Assembly: GCA_965223705.1 (NCBI GenBank)
Contig: OZ245015.1
Span: forward strand, 4,320,001-4,384,000
Origin: Myxococcota bacterium
GTDB taxonomy: Bacteria > Myxococcota_A > UBA9160 > UBA6930
Direction: 5' to 3'
Length of the DNA: 64,000 bases
In this document: one piece after another, positions 1-13,685 of the stretch
Position numbering within the stretch: the first letter of the stretch is position 1
How the letters are laid out: every line of letters begins with the position of its first letter
Notes under the pieces: model-generated
Databases searched by the model: none
Told to the model about the DNA's origin: nothing
What the model saw: the letters and a program-made list of their open reading frames with translations, nothing else
Made by a program: the position numbers and the translations under genes

Positions 1-371
1 GGGTCCTCGGCGAAGAGCTGGGGAAGGTTGTCAAACGGACTGTCGCCCGCGGGCGTCCCGTTCTGCGGCAGTGTGTCGCCCAAAGCCCCGAATTGGTCGA
101 CGGTCGAAAGAACCGAAGCACTCGCAGAGGCACCGTTTTGACCGTTGATGAAAGCGGTACCGAACGCTCGGGACTCCGCTCCCACGCCCTGTGTAGGGTC
201 GAAATCCGAGTAGAGGGCATCGAGTGCTTCGGCAGGAGCACCGGAGGCATCGATGAAGTTCACACCTGCTGCGACGTATTCTGAGAAGTCCCAGCCGGCG
301 ATGAAGGCGGCGTTTGCGCTACTGGAAGCCAGTAGGAGCGAAGCCGCGATTGCCATGGTCTTTTTGATCAT
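1..371 (-). CDS. Secreted protein, partial (3' end beyond window); PEP-CTERM-like N-terminus
   Basis: Manual translation (absent from ORF track because no stop in window): MIKKTMAIAASLLLASSSANA|AFIAGWDFSEY..., open to position 1; AAGGAAG upstream of ATG at 371 (alternative ATG 386). Sorting signal not visible. Confidence 0.75.
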   Translation of the reverse strand, partial: MIKKTMAIAASLLLASSSANAAFIAGWDFSEYVAAGVNFIDASGAPAEALDALYSDFDPTQGVGAESRAFGTAFINGQNGASASASVLSTVDQFGALGDTLPQNGTPAGDSPFDNLPQLFAED

Positions 372-386
372 TAGAGCTTCCTTCAT

Positions 387-477: not shown

Positions 478-2163
478 CTAGAGCAAGCCGGCGAGATCGA
501 GCACGGTCCAACCGTCCGTCCAGAGCGGCTGACCGGCAATGAACCCGCCGCGGGTCGAGGACGTTCCCAGCGGAATCGTTCCGCCGATTGCACCCAACCC
601 ACCCGGTCGAGGATCAATCGGGGCCGACTTGAGACCGGCGCTCAGCTTGTTTGCGGAGTCGCCCGTCGGGTCGAAGGACGTGTCGGCATTGCCGAAGGTC
701 GCGCCGATCGTGTTTAAGCGGTTCACGCCGAGAGCCGAGGTCCGCGTGTCTGCGTCGCCGCAAGCGAGGAGCGCCAGCTCCGTTGCGTTCTGACCACCCG
801 AACCACCTTGGAACGTCGAGGACAGCACTTCGGTCGTGCAGGCTTCCGGTGTCCCCGTGCCGTCGATTTGTTCGGCGGTGGAGAAGCCGGTGCATCCATC
901 AGACGTGTTGTCGTCGACGTCGATGCCTTGACCGATCGGGTTGTTCACGATCGCGTTCACGAGCATGCCGCCGGCGCCGTTGCGGAATTGCACACCGCGG
1001 TTGTTGCCCACGCCTGCGACGCCCGTGGGCGTGAAGTCAGGCGAAGTGACGAGACCGGACCCGAAAGTGGTCCAGTTTGCGAACCGGAAGTTCGACTTCG
1101 GTCGGCAATCGGCCGTGATACCCTTGTCGGCATCGTTGAAGTCGTCGCCGTCGAGCTCGCCGGCCTTGTCGCCGGAGTCGGAGCCGAAGGTTCCGATGTT
1201 ATCGGTCTCGCCAAAGAAGGGCATAATGGCGAAGAGATCTTCATTCACGCCGGTGTAGCCCTGATCGGTGTCGAAGGAATCATCGCCGGCAAATGTCACC
1301 ATCAGATTGTTTCCGTTGACGGTTCCGCCGAACCATTCCATGCCGTCGTCGAAGTTCGCAAAGACCTCGATGAACTCGAAAACGGTCGCGTCGCCGACGC
1401 CGGCGAGAGTCACGCCATTGATCTCGTTCGCTGTACCGATCTGGTCGCCACCGTGTTTGACCTGGATGAATCGCATCGTGCCGCTGTAATCGTGGACCAG
1501 CGGATTCGCGCTGTTGCCGTAGGAAGCCTGGAGCGAGTCGACATCGCCCGGGAGCTCGATCCCCTCAACGGTGCACTCGCCGAGGAGGCTGCCTGACAAG
1601 CCCGCGCAATCGGAGCCGTTGCCGACGTTCACCGGTGCTTCGCCGAGGATCACGAGGCCACCCCAGAGCTGAACCGCCGCGGTGCCATCGGCGGCAAGCG
1701 GAGCGGACGGAACGGTCGTGGGCGTGTCGTCCCAGTACTGCGACTCGAGAGTCGCCCCGGTCGCCTGGTTGAGGAAGGCACCCGTACGGTCCGGCACGTT
1801 GTCCGAGTTGAGATCGAGAGCAGCCGTCGTGAAGATGATCGGGGACGTCGGGAGCCCTTGGGCTTCGAGCGCACCTTGGCGCGTGATAATCAGAGAGCCA
1901 GGAGCTCCGGCCGAGCCCGCGGCGGAACGCCCCTGTCCGCGAACGACGCAGCCAGGGAGAATTGTGAGCACGACCGGCTCGCCACCCTTCGTTCCGTCAC
2001 CGACGGCCACCGGGCCGTCGAGCAGAATCGGGCAGGGATTCGGCGCGACGCCCCAAGTCTCGGACGACGCGATCGTGCCCGACTTCACTGTGCTTTGAGC
2101 ACCTGCCGAACCGGCGACACCGGCGACGGCAAGGGCAATCAAGGCAGTCAACAATCTGCGCAT
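478..2163 (-). CDS. Secreted beta-helix-type protein of the TBDR-associated family (ElpS-like)
   Basis: Signal peptide MRRLLTALIALAVAGVAGSAGA|Q; AGAGGA RBS before ATG 2163; family motifs WGGLVILGEAP, NEINGVTLAGVG, DDGMEWFGGTVN, DDSFDTDQGYTG, C-terminal WTDGWT; adjacent to TBDR. Confidence 0.75.
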   Translation of the reverse strand: MRRLLTALIALAVAGVAGSAGAQSTVKSGTIASSETWGVAPNPCPILLDGPVAVGDGTKGGEPVVLTILPGCVVRGQGRSAAGSAGAPGSLIITRQGALEAQGLPTSPIIFTTAALDLNSDNVPDRTGAFLNQATGATLESQYWDDTPTTVPSAPLAADGTAAVQLWGGLVILGEAPVNVGNGSDCAGLSGSLLGECTVEGIELPGDVDSLQASYGNSANPLVHDYSGTMRFIQVKHGGDQIGTANEINGVTLAGVGDATVFEFIEVFANFDDGMEWFGGTVNGNNLMVTFAGDDSFDTDQGYTGVNEDLFAIMPFFGETDNIGTFGSDSGDKAGELDGDDFNDADKGITADCRPKSNFRFANWTTFGSGLVTSPDFTPTGVAGVGNNRGVQFRNGAGGMLVNAIVNNPIGQGIDVDDNTSDGCTGFSTAEQIDGTGTPEACTTEVLSSTFQGGSGGQNATELALLACGDADTRTSALGVNRLNTIGATFGNADTSFDPTGDSANKLSAGLKSAPIDPRPGGLGAIGGTIPLGTSSTRGGFIAGQPLWTDGWTVLDLAGLL

Positions 2164-2352
2164 GGTAATTGTGGTTCCTCTGGATGAGTTTGTTTCAACG
2201 CCGAGCCCCGCTCCCCGTCCTCGAGGTTCTGGCCCACCGTCGGCGCCTAATGTGTCAGTGCGGGGTGACACACGCGCCGCGCTCGTGTGATGTTTCGTTT
2301 GCCCCTCGGTGACAAGACATTCTTCCCCCTGGGACGCTCATCTCGCGCCTTC

Positions 2353-5300
2353 TCAGAACGTTCGCCGATAGGAAAGGGAGACCGAATAGTCCCGCCCGGA
2401 GCGGAACCGCCGCTCGTAAATGTCGCTGCTTGTCTGCTCGGGGTCGTAGAGGACACCCCGTTGGCTGTCGAGGAGGTTCTTCGCACTGAACTTCAGGACC
2501 AGCGGTTCGAACGTTTCCTTGCCCGGGCGAAGAAACCCGAAGCTCTGGCTGAACACCAAGTCGAGCTGAGAAAAGCCATCGGTGAACTGATCCAGGATCA
2601 GCGAGTTGACCTGTCGGTTCGGGGCGATCTGAGCCACGCCTGCGGCGTTGAGGACATCACTGATCGAGAAGAGCGCTAGGGTGGCCTTCGTTCCCCAAGC
2701 CGGATGGTCGAAGCTCAAGTCGACGTTCGCGATCCACTCCGGCTGTCCGAAAAGGCGCCGCTTCTCCTCGAGACCGCCGAAACGAGCGAGGCCGTCCGCT
2801 TCCGTCGTGCCAAAGAACCCCTCTGAGCGCGCGAGGGTCGCGAAACCGCGTTCCACTTCGGCGTCGATGTACGTGAAATTCCCGCCGATCGAGAAGTAGC
2901 TCGGGAACTCGGACTTGATCGGCTGGTAACCAAAGATCTTCCCGGCCAGGAAGCCCAGGTTCTTGCGCGCCTCGAACTCGAAACCGAGGAGATCGGCATC
3001 TGTCTGGTTGTTGAACCACGTGCGATAAAACGCGAACGAAGTCGAGTCATTGATCGTAGGATCGCGGAGCACGATCTTCTCGATCGGATCCTCAATCGTT
3101 TTATGAAATACGCTGAACGCGACCAGATCGCCTTGGTCGCCCCAGGTGTACTCCAAGCGCGCGTCGAAACTCTCGACTCTCGAGACGTCGAGCTGCGGGT
3201 TCCCGACCTCGAGACCGCTGCTGTCGACGGGAATCGTGACGTAGTAGCCGAGCTCGCGAAAAGACGGACGCGCGACCGTCTTTGAATAGGCGAGTCGTAG
3301 ATTGACACCTTCGAAGGGGCGATAGCCGACACCAATCGTGGGAAGGAAGAACCGCTCGTCGAGCTCCCCGTCGATCAGACTGTTGGGATCATCGACATCC
3401 ACGAATCCCGTGGCTGGATCGATTTGGACGTCGAGCCCGAGAATCTCGTCATTGAACACTGTGCCTGGGACCGCCGTGCCCTCGGTTCGCGTCACCGAAT
3501 TGTCGAGTCGGTCGAAAAACAAATAGCGAGAGGGAAAGACTTCGGGCGCTCCGAGAATCACTTTCGGATCGCCGTTTCGATCGAACGCCCGAGCGTCATT
3601 CGCCGAGGTCAAGCGCAGCGATTCGACGCGAAACCCGCCGAAGACATCGAACACATCCCAGAAGGTGAGCTTCGTATCGAAGTTGAAGGACCAGACCCGC
3701 CTTTCGGACTCGTTGCTCGACAATTGGAGGTTCACCAGTCGGTCCGTGTCGGGGTCCACCGCCAAGCTCGGGATCAGATTGGTCCCCACTTCCTCGAACG
3801 AATCGCCGAGCGCGATCCCCTGCGAGAAGTTCGCCAAGCAAATATCTCGCTCGAATCGACAGCGCTCTTGATCGAACAGAACGCCATCGCCGAGGAAACT
3901 CGCCCCGACATCGCGATCGGAGTTTTCGTACCAGCCGCCGGCGCGGATCGTCCAATCGACGAATCCGAACAATGACCGCTCGTAGCTGATGTCGAGGCGT
4001 GCGAAGTTCTGATTCTCTTCAATTTCGGTGTCGCTGAGCAAAATGTCGTCATTAATCGCGAAGACGCCGTCGCGTTCCGTTATCGGGTAGGTCTCCGGAA
4101 TGAAGGCAAGGTCCGGAGACGTGTTGAAGATCCGGTTCCTCAGTCCGAATTCTTCCTGGTCTGTTCGCGCCGTGTTGGCCACCCAGTTGATCTCGAGCCC
4201 TTCGAAGCGGTCCCAGCGGTGAGACCCATTGATCTGAAAGAGAGTCAGCGAACGCTCGCGATCGACACCCCGACCTTCGTTCACGTTCGACAGCCACTGA
4301 TGCCCTCGGAGAGGCGACGATGTGCGTCCACCCTCGTCGGAGTTGATATTGAACGCGATCCACGACCCCGGTGTCGCGAAGTTGTTGAAGCTGTCGGCAG
4401 AGACCGCTTCTCCCTGCAGTGTGTCGTCGACGAACACGTCGTAGTCGAACCCGGGAATGAAGCCGTTTTCTTTGTGCTGGACGATTTCCTCTTCCTTTTT
4501 CGTGTCGAAGAACGTGAAATCGATGGTGTGGTTCCCCTCGGTGTCGAGGTCGAAACCCAAGCCGCTAAACGCGGTGCGTTGCAGGACGCGCTCGCTCTGG
4601 GTGAGCTCGAACAGGCCTTCCGAGAGGTTGAGCTCGCCGAAGGCGAGGTCTCCGGACTGCTCTTCTCGCAAACCGGCGACTTCAAAACCGAACGGCGGTG
4701 TGATCAAGAGGTTCCGGCGACGCGGTTCCCGCGTTTCCTGAAATCCCTCCGACGTGGAGTAGTCGATCTCGTTGCTCAAGATCGCCTTGAAGCGGACGTT
4801 GCGACCGAAGAGTTCGTTGTTTCCTCCGGCGGAGACCTTGAAATCTGTCTCGAACGGGTTTGACCGGTCGCCACCCGTCGATGATTGGTCGTTGTACCGG
4901 AGGAACGTGTCCTGGGCTCGGTCCTCGAGCCCAGCGCCGGCGCTGAACTCGATGAAGAAGTTGTCTTCGGTGTACTGGTCGGTGCGGATGTCGATCGTAC
5001 CGCCCGCGGAGTTTCCGGGCGCGTCTGCGCCGAAGGTCTTCGCCACGACCAAGTTCGAGACGACTTCCGCGGGAAACAGATCGAGCTGAACCGATTGGCT
5101 CTCCGGGTCCGGGCTCGGTACCGGCGCGCCGTTAAAGAGCGTGCTGCTGTACCGATCTTCGAGGCCGCGAATAATGGCGAACTGCCCCTCGACGATGTTG
5201 ACGCCGGCCACGCGCTTGAGCGCATCGGCCACGTCGCTGGCCGCGAACCGCGAGAGGTCCTCGGCGCTCATGATGTTCAGCAGTTCATCGGACTCGAGCC

Positions 5301-5847
5301 GCAGCTCGAGCGATGTCATGATCTCGCTCACCGTAGACGCTTCGACGACGAACGCTTCGAGGTCGAGCACCTCGCGGCCTTCTTCGGTGGGGAGCGGCGG
5401 CATCGGAAAATCGGCGCGGTTCAGTTGCCCGGCGACGACCTGAAAGTCGGTCATGGTCGATGCTCGGTAGCCAGACTTCACGAAGCTCAGGCTGTACGAG
5501 CCTTCGGGGATCGAAGGAAACGTGAACGCGCCGTCCGGGTCGGTGAGCTGAACTTCCTGGCGGGGTTCGGATCCATCGCCGGGGTCGGGCCACACGACAA
5601 TGACCGAAACACCTGATACGGGCACGCCTGCTTCGGAATCGAACACCTGACCTGCCACACTTCCGTGGCCCGCCGCCGCTTCCGTCGCGGGTGCATCTTT
5701 GTCGACCGCGCTGGCGCTACCGATATTGCCGAGAACGTCTTCGAGGTCTCCCTGTGCCGACACGGGGAGCGCCATCATCAGGCAGAGCGCTGTGGCGGCG
5801 ATGATTGCAAGAGCGCAATGCGCCAGGTGGGGAGCGATTCGCTTCAT
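2353..5847 (-). CDS. TonB-dependent receptor with N-terminal carboxypeptidase-regulatory-like domain
   Basis: Signal peptide ending VSA|Q; plug motif DALKRVAGVNI...IIRGLEDRYSSTLFNG; YSKTVARPSFREL, GNPQL, KNLLD; C-terminal ...SLSYRRTF. Confidence 0.93.
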   Translation of the reverse strand: MKRIAPHLAHCALAIIAATALCLMMALPVSAQGDLEDVLGNIGSASAVDKDAPATEAAAGHGSVAGQVFDSEAGVPVSGVSVIVVWPDPGDGSEPRQEVQLTDPDGAFTFPSIPEGSYSLSFVKSGYRASTMTDFQVVAGQLNRADFPMPPLPTEEGREVLDLEAFVVEASTVSEIMTSLELRLESDELLNIMSAEDLSRFAASDVADALKRVAGVNIVEGQFAIIRGLEDRYSSTLFNGAPVPSPDPESQSVQLDLFPAEVVSNLVVAKTFGADAPGNSAGGTIDIRTDQYTEDNFFIEFSAGAGLEDRAQDTFLRYNDQSSTGGDRSNPFETDFKVSAGGNNELFGRNVRFKAILSNEIDYSTSEGFQETREPRRRNLLITPPFGFEVAGLREEQSGDLAFGELNLSEGLFELTQSERVLQRTAFSGLGFDLDTEGNHTIDFTFFDTKKEEEIVQHKENGFIPGFDYDVFVDDTLQGEAVSADSFNNFATPGSWIAFNINSDEGGRTSSPLRGHQWLSNVNEGRGVDRERSLTLFQINGSHRWDRFEGLEINWVANTARTDQEEFGLRNRIFNTSPDLAFIPETYPITERDGVFAINDDILLSDTEIEENQNFARLDISYERSLFGFVDWTIRAGGWYENSDRDVGASFLGDGVLFDQERCRFERDICLANFSQGIALGDSFEEVGTNLIPSLAVDPDTDRLVNLQLSSNESERRVWSFNFDTKLTFWDVFDVFGGFRVESLRLTSANDARAFDRNGDPKVILGAPEVFPSRYLFFDRLDNSVTRTEGTAVPGTVFNDEILGLDVQIDPATGFVDVDDPNSLIDGELDERFFLPTIGVGYRPFEGVNLRLAYSKTVARPSFRELGYYVTIPVDSSGLEVGNPQLDVSRVESFDARLEYTWGDQGDLVAFSVFHKTIEDPIEKIVLRDPTINDSTSFAFYRTWFNNQTDADLLGFEFEARKNLGFLAGKIFGYQPIKSEFPSYFSIGGNFTYIDAEVERGFATLARSEGFFGTTEADGLARFGGLEEKRRLFGQPEWIANVDLSFDHPAWGTKATLALFSISDVLNAAGVAQIAPNRQVNSLILDQFTDGFSQLDLVFSQSFGFLRPGKETFEPLVLKFSAKNLLDSQRGVLYDPEQTSSDIYERRFRSGRDYSVSLSYRRTF

Positions 5848-5985
5848 CGATTTTTGCTCGGTCGGCAACGCTTTCGGATGCGCCGGTACTCTACTGATGG
5901 TCCGATGAATCGGAGCCTCACTCGCGTGATGAAACCGGGGTGATTCTGTGACGCGACGGAGGCGCGCCGATGAATCGCGTTCGCA

Positions 5986-7341
5986 CTAGCGGGGGCGTAC
6001 GGCTCCTTCGACGCGGGCGAGGAATCGTTCGACGCGCGGCTCGCGCTTGATCGCGAGCGCATCGCGCAGGAGCTCGGCCGCCTTCGCGTAGTCGCGACCG
6101 GTAACGGCGAACTGAGCGTGCTCGAGCAGCGCGCGATATTCGAAGTCGTCGAGCTTTCGGGCGCGCTCCACCAGGAGAATCGCACGCTCTTCCTGACCGC
6201 GTCCGTGGTAGTAGGACGCGAGCTCGAGCAGTGCCTCTCCGCGGGTCCCGTCGCGATCGACGATGGATTCCAGCAGCTTCGCCGCTTCTTTCTCGCGACC
6301 TTCGGCGCGCGCGACCTTCGCTTTCAGGGTCAGCACCTTGAGCTCGTCCTCTTGCGAAAGCTCCTTGGCGTAGCGCGCGTCGACGGAGTTGAGGATTTCT
6401 TTTGCCGAGTCGAACGAGCGCGTCCGAATCAAGAGCTCAGCCGCGCGGTACGCCGTCGTAAACTGGCCGCCGCTCTTGTCGGAACGAATCACGTCGAGGT
6501 ACGCGTTCTTCGCTAAGTCGTACATCCCCGCGTTCATGTAGATATCGCCGAGCAGCACGAGACTGCTGGTCTCGGTTTTTCCCATCATGCGAACGGCTTC
6601 TAAGTTGGTCGCGGCATCCATCGGTTGCTCGAGCCCGATGTACGCGTTGGCCTGGAGCATCCAGGCACTGACGTCGCTGGGATCGTCTTCGATCAAGCTT
6701 TGGAACAGGGCTACGGCCTCGCGGTGCTGGTTCGTCGCGAGAAGTGCGCGCGCCAGGCCGAGCTGCCAATCTCGCGTGTCGGGCTCCTGCAAGATCGCGT
6801 TGCTGTACGCCTCTTTCGCCGCCAGGTTCTTCTCGAGGTTGATGTAGCAGTAGCCGAGCAGGCCGTAGTTCCGGCCGTCGCGGTCGCCGAGCTCGACCGC
6901 GCGGCCGAGGTGCGCAGCACCGCCTTTGAAATCGCCCTTCTGGACGCGCAGGAGTCCCAGGTTCTTGTGGGCGCGCCGGAAGTCCGGAAACTTGTCGATC
7001 GCGCTGCTGTAGTGCTTGGCGGCGGAATCGAGCTGACCGTTCTGAAAACTCAGGTTCGCGAGGACGAAGTCGAGCGCCGCACTACTGTCGCCGGTGATCT
7101 GTTGCGCGAGGACGCTTTCCGCAGCTTTGGGGTTGGCCTTCATCAGCCCGATGACTTCCCGCAGCAACTCGAGCTCGGTGTCTTTGACCTGAGGCTCGGC
7201 GCCGGAGAGAAAGCCGTAGCTTCCGAGAAAGCGCTTCTTCCACTCGGGATCGTCCAAGAATGAGGAGATCTCCGGAGAAGTTGCCGCGGTCGCCGCGCTG
7301 GCGAGTAGAACGAAACAGGCTGCGAGGATTGTTGTGCGCAT
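5986..7341 (-). CDS. Periplasmic tetratricopeptide-repeat protein (TonB-system associated)
   Basis: Signal peptide; many TPR-type helical repeats (e.g. RAHKNLGLLRVQKGDFKGGAAHLGRAVEL). Confidence 0.88.
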   Translation of the reverse strand: MRTTILAACFVLLASAATAATSPEISSFLDDPEWKKRFLGSYGFLSGAEPQVKDTELELLREVIGLMKANPKAAESVLAQQITGDSSAALDFVLANLSFQNGQLDSAAKHYSSAIDKFPDFRRAHKNLGLLRVQKGDFKGGAAHLGRAVELGDRDGRNYGLLGYCYINLEKNLAAKEAYSNAILQEPDTRDWQLGLARALLATNQHREAVALFQSLIEDDPSDVSAWMLQANAYIGLEQPMDAATNLEAVRMMGKTETSSLVLLGDIYMNAGMYDLAKNAYLDVIRSDKSGGQFTTAYRAAELLIRTRSFDSAKEILNSVDARYAKELSQEDELKVLTLKAKVARAEGREKEAAKLLESIVDRDGTRGEALLELASYYHGRGQEERAILLVERARKLDDFEYRALLEHAQFAVTGRDYAKAAELLRDALAIKREPRVERFLARVEGAVRPR

Positions 7342-7432
7342 CACCGGCGAGGCTACTCGATCGGAATGCGCCGAAGTGTTCCGGTCGAGCCGTTCGGCCG
7401 TCTCTTCAACACTTCGTCATCGATTCTTCAAA

Positions 7433-8365
7433 CTAGGGCGATCCGCTGTAAAAGGCCTCGAGCACGACGCGACCGGCGCTTCCCAAGCTCAGTGGCGAGC
7501 ACTTGTCGAGTGTGTCGTCCTGGGTGTGCCACGGCGGATAGTCGAGATCGATCAACACAGCCGCGGGGAATCCGATCTGGAGGAACGGCGTGTGATCGTC
7601 GATGATCGCCTGACCCAAGCGAGGGACAAAGGCCCCTTCGTTTTGGCGACGGGCGGCGTCAAAGAGCTTTTTCGTGAGCGCGGGAAAGCGCTGCGCGCCG
7701 GTGCGCTCCTGGAAGATCTCGAGCTCCGCGTCGCCGACCATGTCGACGATCACCACGGCTTCGGGACGCGCATTCGGACGAAGTCGTTTCCAGTGCTTCG
7801 CCATGTAGCGGGAGCCGACGAGGTAGTCTTCGAGCTCACCCGCACGACCGAAGTCTTCTCCGTCGAAGAAGGCCACCTCGAGTCCCGGTTCCGCGCCCGC
7901 TTCGGCGACGACACGAGCGATCTCGAGCAACACCGCGACGCCGGATCCGCCGTCGTTTGCCCCGACGATCGGCCTCGCGCGCCCCATCGGATCGTCGTCG
8001 AGATCGCCCCACGGCCGCGTGTCGTAATGCGCACCGAGCAGGATCCATGAACCGTCGCGGCCTCCGATGAGCCCGGTGATGTTCGTAAAGTCGCGCGGAG
8101 CGCTCTCGTGCCGGGCTTGGTACTTGAGCGGAATGTCTTCGACCGTAGCGCCCAGCGCTTCGAGGTGTTTCCGGATATAGCGCTGAGCTCGCTCATGCCC
8201 CGGCGTCCCCGGGGCGCGCGGCCCCATCGCGACGAGATTCTGGAGGTGAGTCCAAGCGCGCTCCTCCGAGAAGCGCGCGGCGAGATCGGCGGAAACGGGA
8301 TCGGCTCCGGGTTTCGAACCGCAGGCCAAGACGAAGACAACGAGGAAGCCGTGGATCCACCGCAC
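7433..8365 (-). CDS. M28 family zinc peptidase / type II glutaminyl cyclase-like lipoprotein
   Basis: Lipobox VLAC; motifs AHYD, GANDGGSG, FFDGED, DMVG, DDH, WHT. Confidence 0.85.
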   Translation of the reverse strand: MRWIHGFLVVFVLACGSKPGADPVSADLAARFSEERAWTHLQNLVAMGPRAPGTPGHERAQRYIRKHLEALGATVEDIPLKYQARHESAPRDFTNITGLIGGRDGSWILLGAHYDTRPWGDLDDDPMGRARPIVGANDGGSGVAVLLEIARVVAEAGAEPGLEVAFFDGEDFGRAGELEDYLVGSRYMAKHWKRLRPNARPEAVVIVDMVGDAELEIFQERTGAQRFPALTKKLFDAARRQNEGAFVPRLGQAIIDDHTPFLQIGFPAAVLIDLDYPPWHTQDDTLDKCSPLSLGSAGRVVLEAFYSGSP

Positions 8366-8374
8366 CCGCAGAGG

Positions 8375-9934
8375 TTAGTTCACGCGAATCGGAATCGGCA
8401 GACGCGCCCGCGCCGAAACGGGCTGCCCGTCCCGCGTCGGGGGTGTGAACTTCCACGTTCGGACCTGGGTGAGGACAAACGCTTCGAACTCCGGCAGATC
8501 CGACGAATCGATATCGGCGGTCAGGACCTCGCCTTCTGCGCTGAGCTCGACGGACAACACGATCTCGCCTTGGATCTTCTTGCGCCGCAGCTGCCAAGGT
8601 AACTCGAGCCCCGCGCTACCGACCGGCCGCGGCGGTCGGTCGAGATCGGTCGCGTTGTGAATGCGCGCGAGCTCTTGCGCGCGCTTGAGCGCGGCAGCCC
8701 GCTTCGCGTCGCGGTGCGTTCGCTCGTGTCGAGCCAGCGCGGCCCGCGCATCACCGCGTTGATACAGCCCACGGAACCCTTCGTGCGAGCACGCACCGTC
8801 CGCGCAAAAGATCTCCCACAGACTCGCGGCGGCGAGTTCCGATGCGCTCGCGCCGCCGACTTGTGGATCGTTGACGACGAGCGTCGCGATCGCGATGCGC
8901 GGCTCATCCGCCGGAGCCACACCGATAAACCACTGATAGAGACCTTCCGGCGCGTGCCCGCTCAAGGTCCCGGTCTTACCGGCGACGGAAATCTCGCCGA
9001 GAAAGGGCGAGCCCGAAGCGTTGTGGAAAGCGCGGCGCGCGGTTCCACTGCGGGTGACCGAAATCAAATGCTCGCGCAGTTCGGCTGTGAGCTCGGGCGT
9101 CCAAACCGCTTCCGCCGGCCGCGCTTCGGGGATTTCGTAGTCGTTTCCATAGCGATCCCGAATGCGTGCGATCCAGTGGGGCGTCACCAGACCACCGTTG
9201 GCGAGAAGCGCTGCGAGACGGGCCGCGCTGAGCGGCGTGATGAACGAGCCGGCGAGTCCCGAACCGAGCCGGCCGAGATCGAAGGGACCTTCGCCGCTGT
9301 CGATCTCACCCGTCGCGTGCCCCGGCGCTGGCGCTTCGAGCAGTCCGGCGCGCTCGATCTCGTCGACGAGTAGCGTCTCGCCGACGTCTCGCGCGGCGAA
9401 GCGTGCGAAGCACTGATTGTTCGAGTTTGCGAGAGCGGTGCGGAACGTTTCGACGACTCCGCCTTCCCGAGGAGGCGTAAAGTCGCCACCGTGCAACGCG
9501 TAGCGGTTTCCCGTGTATCGGCACGGGCCCCGTGCCGCATCGGGAGCGTGTTTTAGAACCGCTGCAGCCGTGACAACTTTCATCAGCGACGCGGCCGGGT
9601 AAGCGCGCGTCGGCGGGAAGGCCTCAGGATCGGTCGAAAGGTAGGCGAACACTGCGCCGCTCGACGCATCCATCACGAGGATGTGACCGCGGTCGACCTC
9701 GCGCTCTGTGAGTAGGGCCCGCAGATTGGACTCGAGCATCGGATCGGTCGTGTATTCGACTTCGTAGTCGCCGACGCGCTCAAGCGTGCGAAGTCCTGCT
9801 GCGGGAACCGTCGCTTGCGACGCCCGCGCTCCCGGGGGCAAGCGTTCGAAGAGTTCCTGCGCCGGCTCCGCACCCGCGGGACACCCGAAAACGAGCGCCC
9901 CGAGCAGCGCGAGTGTTCGGACGCGCCCGCTCAA
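8375..9934 (-). CDS. Penicillin-binding transpeptidase domain protein fused to a C-terminal TonB domain
   Basis: SxxK (SLMK), SxN (SNN), KTG (GKTGT); last ~90 aa is a TonB_C domain (WKFTPP...PIPIRVN); overlaps the tonB stop by 4 nt. Confidence 0.85.
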   Translation of the reverse strand: MSGRVRTLALLGALVFGCPAGAEPAQELFERLPPGARASQATVPAAGLRTLERVGDYEVEYTTDPMLESNLRALLTEREVDRGHILVMDASSGAVFAYLSTDPEAFPPTRAYPAASLMKVVTAAAVLKHAPDAARGPCRYTGNRYALHGGDFTPPREGGVVETFRTALANSNNQCFARFAARDVGETLLVDEIERAGLLEAPAPGHATGEIDSGEGPFDLGRLGSGLAGSFITPLSAARLAALLANGGLVTPHWIARIRDRYGNDYEIPEARPAEAVWTPELTAELREHLISVTRSGTARRAFHNASGSPFLGEISVAGKTGTLSGHAPEGLYQWFIGVAPADEPRIAIATLVVNDPQVGGASASELAAASLWEIFCADGACSHEGFRGLYQRGDARAALARHERTHRDAKRAAALKRAQELARIHNATDLDRPPRPVGSAGLELPWQLRRKKIQGEIVLSVELSAEGEVLTADIDSSDLPEFEAFVLTQVRTWKFTPPTRDGQPVSARARLPIPIRVN

Positions 9935-10593
9935 TTGATTTGAATCGGAATCGGCAATCGCGCTTGTGCGCGCACCGGTCGACCCTGTTGCGTGGGCGGA
10001 GTGAACTTCCAGTCTCTGACTTCGGCGAGGATGAAGTTGTTGAAGTCGGGAAGCGTGGAAGAATCGAGCTGCACGTCCATGACGTCGCCGCCGGTGTCGA
10101 GCTTGACGAGCAGGACGACGCGCCCCTTGACTTTCTTTTTCAACAACCGACGCGGAAAGTTGAACCCCGAGACACCGATCGGTCGCGGCGTTTGATCGAG
10201 GCTTGAGAAATCGACGAAGTCCTCGGTTCCGAGATCGCGCGACGAAGTCCCGATCGTCGGCATCGCGAAGTCTCCCGCGAGCGATCCTCCCGTGCCGGGG
10301 TTGAGGGCGATATCGAGCTGGTCGAGCGAGAGCTGCGGCGGATCCTCTTCGAGCTCCGGCGGCGGCGGCTCTTCCTCAGGCGGGGGCAGTTCTTCTTCCT
10401 CGATTTCCTCGATGTCGGGCGGCGTGTACGCCATGACCATCTCATCGATCTCTCGGGTCGGCGGCTTGACCTTCCCCATCATCTGTACGAGGGCCATCAC
10501 CAAGAAGAGAACCACCGCGAAGAGCACCCCTGCCGCGAGGCCTGCGCGAGCCTCACCGGGGCGTTCGGGCAATCGAAACGTTCGCTTCGGCAT
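9931..10593 (-). CDS. tonB: Energy transducer TonB
   Basis: N-terminal TM helix, Pro/Glu-rich linker (LPPPEEEPPPPE), TonB_C domain. Confidence 0.9.
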   Translation of the reverse strand: MPKRTFRLPERPGEARAGLAAGVLFAVVLFLVMALVQMMGKVKPPTREIDEMVMAYTPPDIEEIEEEELPPPEEEPPPPELEEDPPQLSLDQLDIALNPGTGGSLAGDFAMPTIGTSSRDLGTEDFVDFSSLDQTPRPIGVSGFNFPRRLLKKKVKGRVVLLVKLDTGGDVMDVQLDSSTLPDFNNFILAEVRDWKFTPPTQQGRPVRAQARLPIPIQIN

Positions 10594-10603
10594 TGGGGGG
10601 CCC

Positions 10604-11008
10604 TCAGTCGTTTCGCGTTGAGAGGCTGATCTTCTTGGCCCCGGCGTTTTTGACTTCGCTCCAAACGTCGGAAAAAACGCCGTGGTCCGCGCGCGCGTCC
10701 GCCTGGATGATGACGGGCAACTCGTCGCGGGTGAGAAGCTGTTTCACTCGCGCGCCGACGCCCGAGACGCCGAGCTCGCGTCCGCCGTAAACCACTTTGT
10801 TGTCGGCGGAAACCGCGATGATGATGCTGTTCTTTTCGAGGTCTTCGTCCAAAACCGCGTCGGGTTTCGCGATCTCGACCCCCGGTTCTTCGACGAAGAC
10901 GGTCGTCACGATGAAGAAGATCAACAGGATGAAAATGCAGTCGATCATCGGAGACAGGTTGATCTCCGTTTCGGTATCCGGATCTTCGAGGACGCTTCTT
11001 CGGGCCAT
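10604..11008 (-). CDS. exbD: Biopolymer transporter ExbD
   Basis: [22 protein letters not shown] and IIQAD motifs. Confidence 0.93.
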
Positions 11009-11311: not shown

Positions 11312-12079
11312 ATGTCACGCTGGTTTCTAGGCTTCCTGTTCGGCTTCACGTCGACGCTGATCGCCTTGACGATCGGGTCGCAGGAAGCCCAGGCTGCTTC
11401 ACTCAACTTCAACAGTCTCGCCAGCGGCGAGGTCGTCTCCACCCAGTTCGCTGGGCAAGGGGTGACGATCAGCGCCATCAACCCAAACCAACCGTTCGAC
11501 CTAGCCGTCGCTTTCGACGGGGACGACCCGGCGGCGGCCGCCGCCGACCCGGATCTGGTCGGTCCCTTTTCGAGCGGGAACCTCGCCGGGCAGGACGTGG
11601 GAAACCTGTTGATCGTCGCCGAGAACAACGTCGACGGGAACAGCGACGGATTGATCGACTCGCCGGATGATCAGGGCTCGGGTTCCGGCGCCACGTTCGT
11701 CCTCGACTTCGCGATGAGCGTCGCGAGCTTCGGTTTCGATCTCATCGACATCGACGCCGACGAAACCGGCGAGATCCGGCTCTTCGGAGCGAGCGGAGTG
11801 ACCTCCTTCCTCTTTCGGGACCTCCCCGGACCCACCGTGTTCGGCGACAACTCCGCGAACCGCGTCGACCCATTGATCGCCGGTTCGGAAGGTTGGGATC
11901 GCGTCGAAATCGAGCTGTCCCGCTCGGGCGCAATCGCGAACGTGAACTTCACCGTGGTTCCAGAGCCTGCGAGCGGGTTGGCTGTCGCCCTAGGGCTCGC
12001 CGGCCTGGCGGGCTGGCGGAGGCGAAGACTGCGCGCCGCCTCGCCAGCCCGCTCCGCACGGAACCCCCATTCTTCGTAG
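11312..12079 (+). CDS. PEP-CTERM sorting domain surface protein
   Basis: GGAG RBS, signal peptide (…QEAQA|A), C-terminal VPEPASGLAVALGLAGLAGWRRRR. Confidence 0.88.
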   Translation: MSRWFLGFLFGFTSTLIALTIGSQEAQAASLNFNSLASGEVVSTQFAGQGVTISAINPNQPFDLAVAFDGDDPAAAAADPDLVGPFSSGNLAGQDVGNLLIVAENNVDGNSDGLIDSPDDQGSGSGATFVLDFAMSVASFGFDLIDIDADETGEIRLFGASGVTSFLFRDLPGPTVFGDNSANRVDPLIAGSEGWDRVEIELSRSGAIANVNFTVVPEPASGLAVALGLAGLAGWRRRRLRAASPARSARNPHSS

Positions 12080-12341: not shown

Positions 12342-13685
12342 ATGAAGCGACTCGCATTCTTCGCTGCGCTCGGCTCGATGCTCTTCGCGCTGTCAGCGCA
12401 AGCAGACGTCCAGCCCGGCGATGAAATCCGGTGGGACGATCGGGAAAAGGTCCGCGGCCTGCTCCCGGATGAGATCTTTCCGTATGTAGCCGAGGGCTAC
12501 AAAGACCTGTACATGCGGATTGTGCCGACCGGCGACTACACGCCGAACCAGAAGTACATCGAGGCCACCGTCAAATACGCCTGCCAGGCGACGGTGAACG
12601 ACAAGGGCGTTCTCGAGAACTACACCGCGGGCGAGCCCTTCCCGTACTCGAAGTGGTCGCAGGAAGCGACGAATCACTCGTGCGACCTCAAGGAAGACGA
12701 TCCGCAGTTCGCGATCAAGCTGGGCTGGAACTACAACTACCGCTGGCAAGGTGGCTCCGGCCTGAACCTCCCGCACTGGGGCTTCAGCTGGATGCGCAAC
12801 AACGGCAAAGAGCGCTGGCGCCTGGGCCAGGGCGAGTATCGCCGCACCTACTTCAGCCACCGGGCCGACCTGCTGCCCGACACCACGGTCCTCGAAGAGG
12901 GCACCGAAGTCGAATGGGCCGAGTTCTTCGACGTGAAGACGCCCTTCGACCTTCGCGGCACGATGTTCCTGCTCTACCGCTACGTGACCGACAAAGAGGA
13001 CGACACGTGGGCGTACATTCCGGCGCTGCGCCGCGTGCGCCGCATCGCGGCGACCCAGAAGTCGGACTCGCTGCTCGGCACGGAGTTCTCTCTCGAGGAC
13101 TTCTACGGAATGGCGGGCTACATCTGGAACCAGGCTTGGGAGTACGGTGGTACGACCACCAAGCTCGCGGCTTTCGGCGGAAGCAACGGGAACTACGGCC
13201 GCAAGTGCTGGAACCACATCATTCCGGACGACATGGGGCTCCAGGGTATGTCGCGCCTCGGCACCGACGAAGAGTGGGAGTACTGCAAGTTCGGTCCCTA
13301 CAACGCCATGGCGTGGCACGACGAAGACTGGCAGAAGCGCGAAGCTATCCAGCTCGACATCATTCCGCTGCAGAAGGGTCACCCCTACAGCCGGCGGAAG
13401 TTCTGGGTCGACCGCGAGACCTACACGCCCATGTATTTCATGGCGTATGACCGCGCGGGTCAGCCGTACAAGATCCTGAACGGTGGCCACCGCTGGAGCG
13501 AGGACAGCCCGATTCCGGACAATCACGGACGGCGCACCCTCAACTACTCGTTCATCGCCATCGCGAACGTGCAGAACGAGATCTCGCACACCGGTCAATT
13601 TGACAACGCGAGTTCTCCGCCGTTCAGCATTGCAGAGTCGAGGAAGTACTACGACACCACGCGCTTGAAGCGCCGCGGTCGCTAG
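12342..13685 (+). CDS. DUF1329 domain periplasmic protein (LolA-like superfamily)
   Basis: Signal peptide; GEPFP, DDTWAYIPALRRVRRI, HPYSRRKFWVDRET, YDRAG motifs. Confidence 0.85.
   Translation: MKRLAFFAALGSMLFALSAQADVQPGDEIRWDDREKVRGLLPDEIFPYVAEGYKDLYMRIVPTGDYTPNQKYIEATVKYACQATVNDKGVLENYTAGEPFPYSKWSQEATNHSCDLKEDDPQFAIKLGWNYNYRWQGGSGLNLPHWGFSWMRNNGKERWRLGQGEYRRTYFSHRADLLPDTTVLEEGTEVEWAEFFDVKTPFDLRGTMFLLYRYVTDKEDDTWAYIPALRRVRRIAATQKSDSLLGTEFSLEDFYGMAGYIWNQAWEYGGTTTKLAAFGGSNGNYGRKCWNHIIPDDMGLQGMSRLGTDEEWEYCKFGPYNAMAWHDEDWQKREAIQLDIIPLQKGHPYSRRKFWVDRETYTPMYFMAYDRAGQPYKILNGGHRWSEDSPIPDNHGRRTLNYSFIAIANVQNEISHTGQFDNASSPPFSIAESRKYYDTTRLKRRGR

Follow-up and report, generated by a model that had tools for sequence, protein, structure and literature searches.

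The window analysed here, a 64,000-nucleotide stretch of a Myxococcota genome (assembly GCA_965223705.1, contig OZ245015.1, positions 4,320,001 to 4,384,000), carries on its reverse strand a gene that joins a penicillin-binding transpeptidase domain, through a single long helix, to a TonB_C domain. The gene follows tonB in a cluster that also encodes a TonB-dependent receptor, and its TTG start overlaps the TGA stop of tonB by 4 nt, in line with the overlap noticed in a sequence-only reading of the locus (Table 1). That reading had described intact SxxK, SxN and KTG motifs, a helical linker and a C-terminal TonB_C domain, and had proposed a peptidoglycan-modifying or beta-lactam-binding enzyme targeted to TonB-dependent receptors, for example to remodel the wall at trans-envelope uptake sites.

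Anatomy of the fusion and its gene cluster

The architecture was confirmed by Pfam, by alignment of homologs and by an AlphaFold model. The Pfam matches to Transpeptidase (aa 84-370, E 1e-23) and TonB_C (aa 446-514, E 8.5e-10) both lie over their cut-offs, and the C-terminal domain passes those of PF03544 and TIGR01352 alike. The model, for which 118 homologs served as input, has a mean pLDDT of 93 and a pTM of 0.84. A protein search with the fusion gave 478 matches among 8000 candidates; both Pfam domains are present in 119 of the best 120 (own protein included), and the remaining one likewise terminates in TonB_C-like sequence. Among these 120 homologs ASxxK is kept in 119, SNN in 120 and KTG in 119, and Cys138, Cys175, Cys377 and Cys382 of the transpeptidase domain are invariant. 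The gene is spanned by single contigs in four of four runs, with no indels listed (two samples of one study, possibly the source). Because the architecture recurs in 119 of the 120 best homologs and single contigs span the gene, the fusion is genuine and an assembly artefact is refuted. An Atlas search with the fusion at 0.85 returned only plain transpeptidase clusters, no RNA holder was listed, a promoter and terminator scan stayed at chance level, and a repeat scan gave nothing relevant.

By its motifs, set in a predicted penicillin-binding protein (PBP) fold, the fusion belongs to the PBP transpeptidase superfamily (PF00905). The nearest folds are class B PBPs, namely C. difficile SpoVD (7rcz, E 5e-18) and M. 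tuberculosis PbpA. No match to the PBP_dimer pedestal (PF03717) was found at E 0.01, just about 55 residues lie upstream of the domain, and with 59 bits for mrdA (cut-off 455) and 50 bits for spoVD (cut-off 688) the fusion stays far below both profiles. In the AlphaFold model the N-terminal part consists of the folded transpeptidase and a rigid helix, without the membrane helix and the disordered, ExbBD-engaging linker of a TonB. The protein is thus neither a canonical class B PBP, the pedestal being absent, nor an energising TonB. No SEDS gene was seen among its annotated neighbours, no genome-wide search having been made, and no beta-lactamase family of Pfam or NCBIfam matched it. Its leader resembles a signal peptide, and a loose AxA pattern occurs in 71 of 77 fused-homolog leaders (a count made without a control). 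Cys18 could belong to a lipobox; it is not conserved, and the single leader of the 77 that fits the lipobox pattern is not this one. We infer from these patterns that the enzyme is exported as a soluble periplasmic protein.

The fused TonB_C domain aligns without gaps to that of the overlapping TonB, with 47 of 93 residues identical (E 2e-32); the sequence-only reading had counted the same match as 47 of 89 over a shorter span. These two are the only TonB_C domains over the cut-off in the genome, which holds five receptors. Identity of the fused domain to its own TonB, 51%, ranks 12th of 16, no closer than that to the TonBs of other genomes, and on average fused domains are 50.8% identical to the TonB of their own genome and 49.4% to those of others. 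Since it is no closer to its own TonB, we regard the fused domain as probably a paralog from an old duplication, not a recent copy. The two copies in the window match at 15 of 31 four-fold sites, and together with the ranking this speaks against a recent duplication, which we reject; the former description of the domain as a duplicate of its neighbour stands as paralogy and falls as a recent copy. Trees of TonB_C, proposed earlier as a check, mostly part TonBs from fusions, weakly, and no order of events is claimed from them. The TonB grouping has a support of 95 in a quick tree and 75/81 in a careful one of 33 rows, and the TonBs do not form one group in a 129-row tree (3 changes); the latter two omit three long rows, and every tree is unrooted. 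In the AU test, pairing of the fused domain with its own TonB was not formally rejected (p 0.07). The subfamily fold is retained in the fused domain.

Left of the window the cluster extends, on the same strand, through genes for a 269-aa unknown, a DUF3450 protein, a TtpC-like long ExbB, ExbB and ExbD. Taken together, DUF3450, TtpC, ExbB, ExbD, TonB and the TPR protein resemble the Vibrio TonB2/TonB3 systems in domain content and order. A box-like stretch ahead of the receptor plug is kept in 32 aligned receptors. The Peptidase M28 gene between the fusion and the TPR gene was considered as a further core part and is probably not one, because it was not found in other cluster loci.

Several observations concern the surroundings of this machinery. 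The receptor, the 597-aa protein, the PEP-CTERM protein and the 269-aa unknown move as a module (478-5868; G000:C1 about 4,318,660-4,320,390), which also occurs with other TonB types (G100) or without Ton genes nearby (G127). Proteins resembling the 597-aa one are found most often in Verrucomicrobiota. In many genomes the cluster has two further neighbours, an OmpR/PhoB-like response regulator and an exported protein of 316 aa that neither Pfam nor NCBIfam matches (L033:8644-10332, left of the window). Divergently upstream of exbD lie genes for a PEP-CTERM protein and a DUF1329/LolA-like protein (11312-12079 and 12342-13685). Extra stand-alone copies of the cognate tonB occur off-cluster at L072, L079, L097 and L106 (G076, G102, G199 and G198).

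Table 1. Features of the fusion gene and its cluster (window positions), and the substitute fusions of relatives (locus positions)
Feature	Position	Strand	Remarks
Transpeptidase-helix-TonB_C fusion gene	8375..9934	(-)	519 aa; TTG start; Pfam, AlphaFold
Signal-peptide-like leader	9866..9934	(-)	aa 1-23; crude patterns only
Class-B-like penicillin-binding transpeptidase domain, without PBP_dimer pedestal	8780..9769	(-)	aa 56-385
SxxK motif, S116-L-M-K119	9578..9589	(-)	S116 nucleophile; S in 119/119 rows with a residue, K in 120/120
SxN motif, S171-N-N173	9416..9424	(-)	120/120 homologs
KTG motif	8969..8977	(-)	aa 320-322; K in 119/120, TG in 120/120
Single long helical spacer	8648..8773	(-)	aa 388-429, 42 residues; AlphaFold
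TonB_C domain of fusion	8378..8656	(-)	aa 427-519; probable paralog of the cluster's TonB_C
tonB	9931..10593	(-)	220 aa; hydrophobic N-terminal segment, Glu/Pro linker, TonB_C
exbD	10604..11008	(-)	one of two in cluster; Pfam
Peptidase M28 gene	7433..8365	(-)	directly after fusion; lipobox-like leader
TPR protein at TtpD position	5986..7344	(-)	Pfam, cluster order
TonB-dependent receptor	2353..5868	(-)	N-terminal CarboxypepD_reg, plug, barrel; Pfam/NCBIfam
Candidate TonB box of receptor	5341..5361	(-)	aa 170-176, just before plug; position and pattern
597-aa exported protein	478..2271	(-)	beta-helix look-alikes; conserved receptor neighbour
PEP-CTERM protein, 5' part	1..386	(-)	270 aa
M15/LAS-like zinc peptidase-TonB_C fusions	L030:6086-6925 (G030); L067 (G083)		proteins P0123-P0166

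Distribution, origin and a substitute catalytic domain

Recurrence in relatives, on which the earlier proposal depended, was assessed in 225 genomes of the class, in which every match to the TonB_C subfamily was read, and in 401 genomes of the phylum. The subfamily was found in 47 of the class genomes and in 12 of the phylum genomes, all 12 within the class. The trait was found in one class of Myxococcota, whose hosts are known here from metagenome-type assemblies alone. The transpeptidase fusion occurs in 19 of the 225 genomes and a second fusion, with an M15-like domain, in two; one further copy (G124), cut at a contig end, is uncounted. A fusion is present in 16 of the 40 genomes that have the cognate TonB and in 5 of the 185 in which it was not found (six families, the kin not being independent), and in 18 of the 78 genomes that have the wider receptor family. 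Eleven of the 19 transpeptidase fusions lie inside the cluster, at four positions: between tonB and the TPR gene, after the receptor, before DUF3450, and at the far end. The first of these slots holds it in G000, G052 and G085; another copy (G078) adjoins a cluster-associated gene at a contig edge, and four more in-cluster fusions are among 24 metagenome loci. The fusion is an optional accessory of the TonB2-like system and not an essential part of it.

The transpeptidase family also includes a solo form, which is near-core (a member occurs in 191 of the 225 class genomes) and whose gene adjoins nifU in 21 of 21 loci. One such solo PBP, lacking a pedestal and apparently anchored in the membrane, lies at L032:7455-8777 (G000:C1 about 537,450-538,780). 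The solo paralog has a weak match to PF13354 only (E 0.03). Two or more family members are present in 15 of the 19 fusion genomes, the window's genome included. In an unrooted tree of 18 fused and 47 solo rows, from which two partial fusions were omitted, the transpeptidase domains of the two kinds split with a support of 100/100, and in the AU test pairing of the window's fusion with its own solo paralog was not quite rejected (p 0.051). In 38 of 46 solo proteins the N-terminus has a basic stretch and a conserved motif, then a hydrophobic segment; by crude patterns the anchor motif occurs in one of 17 fused proteins and in none of 77 fused-homolog leaders, and the hydrophobicity over 19 residues is close between fused leaders and solo paralog (1.66 and 1.85). 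The fusion may have arisen when a duplicate of this near-core, membrane-anchored PBP swapped its anchor for a cleaved signal peptide and a TonB_C domain.

G030 and G083 have, in the slot flanked by tonB and the TPR gene, a gene for an exported protein of 250-280 aa, in which a different domain is joined to the same TonB_C subfamily. Both genomes have the solo transpeptidase only and no transpeptidase fusion. Among the 44 full-length members of this second type, Arg77, His98, Asp105 and His141 are invariant, and the His-Asp-His set (H98, D105, H141), which we take to be zinc ligands from the family pattern of His-x6-Asp and a distal His, is present in 44 of 44. The domain model matches the Streptomyces DD-peptidase 1lbu with a Z score of 8.2 (root-mean-square deviation 3.5 over 99 aligned residues), but an unrelated PulL domain scores nearly as well (7.8), and the domain stays under the Pfam cut-offs (M15_3, E 0.09, 13.3 bits against 23.2; DUF5715, E 1e-4). 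We therefore call it M15-like. That two unrelated, putatively stem-acting folds share a docking domain and a slot is the strongest pointer in these data, and it suggests wall editing for the TonB system.

The M15-like domain was found at none of the 24 metagenome loci, and no third enzyme partner on TonB_C was found in 78 search matches, the class loci or the 24 metagenome loci. Nine of the matches without PF00905 were read; eight are TonBs and one is a fusion fragment. A profile search of 50%-identity representatives was dominated by multi-TonB_C proteins with two to nine tandem matches (P0202-P0351); two of its 150 rows are single-domain, both of them fragments of the transpeptidase-TonB_C fusion.

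Proposed function and alternative readings

The fusion is real and conserved and, as an accessory of a TonB2-like system in which the catalytic domain can be exchanged, apparently undescribed. That such fusions form a class of TonB-system accessories of their own, in which a soluble peptidoglycan enzyme, be it a serine D,D-peptidase or in its place an M15-like zinc peptidase, is addressed to the uptake site by a non-energised TonB_C, seems to us an evenly balanced proposition. The transpeptidase version would be a soluble periplasmic D,D-peptidase, either a transpeptidase or a carboxypeptidase, with the non-energised TonB_C copy as its address tag. The fused domain would pair with the TonB box of the cluster receptor by beta-strand addition, as TonB does, and the helix of about 6 nm (42 residues of 1.5 Å each) would position the active site at the peptidoglycan. 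By tuning cross-links or stem peptides, the enzyme could let the six-part TonB machine cross the wall or brace against it. The receptor box is favoured as the dock because it is the established ligand of the TonB_C fold and because G100 (93% complete) and G127 (89%) have retained the fusion together with a related receptor module, while no cognate TonB or TPR gene was found in them. We tentatively propose a wall-editing enzyme docked at the uptake site, probably on this box.

Several observations weigh against this proposal. Fused TonB_C domains are less conserved pairwise than those of TonBs (48% versus 65%), and the residue equivalent to E. coli R166, a position with a role in TonB, is Arg in 94% of 53 TonBs, Arg in 53% of 49 transpeptidase fusions, and Gln here. 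An unanchored TonB_C could compete with TonB for the box, and on genetic grounds the TPR protein or TonB are equally plausible as partners. Seven of the 19 fusions sit among unrelated genes. In one fusion genome (G051, 95% complete) TPR, receptor and cognate TonB were not found, and in one family (f11) no fusion was found although the cognate TonB occurs in 22 of 68 genomes. G100 and G127 have receptors of a more distant subtype, and the gene context of the M15-like fusion comes from two genomes of one genus only.

Some of these points would fit a different view, in which TonB_C acts generally as an address or as a module that binds the wall, the fusion had a single origin within the cluster, the linkage is historical and the enzyme serves general periplasmic wall maintenance. 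Binding of peptidoglycan by the C-domain of TonB has been proposed, the seven unlinked copies, G051 and the faster drift of the fused TonB_C are as this view would have them, and the fused transpeptidase is of single origin, so that its linkage counts as one inherited event. We consider it rather unlikely, since the gene has shifted its position within the cluster several times and yet remained there, a fusion occurs in just 5 of the 185 genomes without the cognate TonB, and another enzyme has come to use the same domain in the same slot.

Alternatively, the enzyme could do the same job in the same machine but dock on the TPR protein, on TtpC/DUF3450 or on TonB itself, in the last case as a heterodimer of C-domains. 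Co-occurrence is tighter with the cognate TonB (16/40) than with the wider receptor family (18/78), genes of both fusion types often have tonB and the TPR gene as their immediate neighbours on either side, the fusions are less constrained at the R166-equivalent, and TolA-CpoB-PBP1B offers a known analogue (PMC11721397, in the portion consulted). The retention of the fusion in G100 and G127, where neither TPR nor cognate TonB was found, speaks for the receptor instead, and we hold docking elsewhere in the machine to be unlikely.

A TonB_C domain without a membrane anchor cannot transmit force, and the fusion could be a regulator, its wall-binding enzyme domain tethering a TonB mimic that holds the box shut, or marks it, until displaced by TonB. 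The unanchored TonB_C with its subfamily fold kept would suit this role; the full catalytic motifs in both enzyme types are more than a tether requires, which makes the regulator improbable. Even less probable is a beta-lactam sink or weak beta-lactamase below the receptor that traps incoming antibiotics. The predicted serine penicillin-binding fold, soluble and exported, would allow it, but the fusion matches no beta-lactamase family, and the parent paralog, near-core and beside nifU, is unlike a resistance gene. Moreover, the beta-lactam-binding variant of the earlier proposal is weakened because the M15-like substitute has the fold of a zinc peptidase, an enzyme type that forms no covalent bond with beta-lactams and cannot acylate them, whereas the broader idea of a peptidoglycan enzyme tied to TonB gains from the intact motifs, the recurrence, the 11 of 19 linked copies and the M15-like replacement. 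To an assembly artefact or a recent accidental duplication we give next to no weight: two similar domains lie 1.6 kb apart and neither AU test (p 0.07 with the own TonB, p 0.051 with the own solo transpeptidase) gave formal rejection, but the recurrence in homologs, the spanning contigs and the four-fold sites tell against it.

If wall editing at the receptor is correct, TonB import has dedicated wall-remodelling enzymes, and TonB_C is a portable tag by which enzymes can be sent to one particular outer-membrane receptor. The way in which TonB gets across the peptidoglycan to its receptors and pulls on them is not yet settled, and recent work has given the wall an anchoring role (PMC10771500, in the part consulted). 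Our data suggest, short of proof, that these bacteria edit their wall where the uptake machine crosses it. Two unrelated wall enzymes with the same TonB_C would also be small soluble reagents for studying local wall editing in uptake, and TonB_C targeting apart from energy transfer.

Comparison with known systems

In the literature searched, which did not cover subscription journals and supplements, there was no description of either fusion, in agreement with the earlier impression that the architecture is uncharacterised, and no paper on a wall enzyme dedicated to a TonB system. With class B PBPs such as MrdA/PBP2, FtsI, SpoVD and M. tuberculosis PbpA the fusion shares the transpeptidase fold and the SxxK, SxN and KTG motifs; unlike them it has no pedestal match, a signal-peptide-like leader in place of the anchor, and a C-terminal TonB_C. 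Likewise, the substitute fusion has the fold and His-Asp-His set of the M15/LAS zinc peptidases (1lbu, ChiX, Ply500, VanY) but falls under Pfam cut-offs and is fused to TonB_C. Secretion and flagellar machines have dedicated wall enzymes, to which the fusion may be likened.

A coupling of motor and wall enzyme is known from Tol-Pal, whose CpoB is a TPR protein. There, TolA and CpoB are coupled to PBP1B, and the likeness lies in a TonB-homologous motor and a TPR protein tied to a D,D-transpeptidase (PMC11721397, as far as consulted); in Tol-Pal these are separate proteins acting at division, whereas in the uptake cluster described here a single protein combines enzyme and docking domain. Type II secretion in Aeromonas has the ExeA/ExeB (GspAB) pair, in which a TonB-like protein links the outer-membrane channel to a partner that binds peptidoglycan, and the fusion may be compared to it as a TonB-like bridge between wall and channel. 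The pair differs in that ExeA is a wall binder for which the text available mentions no cutting, its target is a secretin, and two proteins are used in place of a fusion (PMC4098917). For the Ton motor itself, the binding of peptidoglycan by ExbD is a precedent for working against the wall (PMC10771500, same portion).

TonB_C as a module on a protein other than TonB recalls the M56-TonB_C and CarboxypepD_reg-TonB_C proteins. TonBs with such extra domains in Bacteroides had, to their authors' knowledge, not been functionally characterised (PMC10350073, in the section consulted), and M56-TonB_C is given as the second commonest M56 architecture in the CenIR preprint (10.64898/2026.04.08.717257, partial text). 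Those are membrane signalling proteases or multi-domain TonBs, whereas the proteins described here would be soluble peptidoglycan enzymes.

Closest to the cluster as a whole are the six-protein Vibrio TonB2 and TonB3 systems, TtpB-TtpC-ExbB-ExbD-TonB-TtpD, of which TonB3 carries its own receptor (PMC6957404, as far as consulted). The cluster in the window resembles them in having DUF3450 first, a long ExbB and the TPR protein last, and, like TonB3, a receptor of its own. An optional gene for a wall enzyme with TonB_C belongs to the cluster here and is not mentioned in the consulted part of that description (PMC6957404). The cluster is further set apart from the Vibrio systems by two ExbD proteins, a TonB_C subfamily of its own and a beta-helix/PEP-CTERM module.

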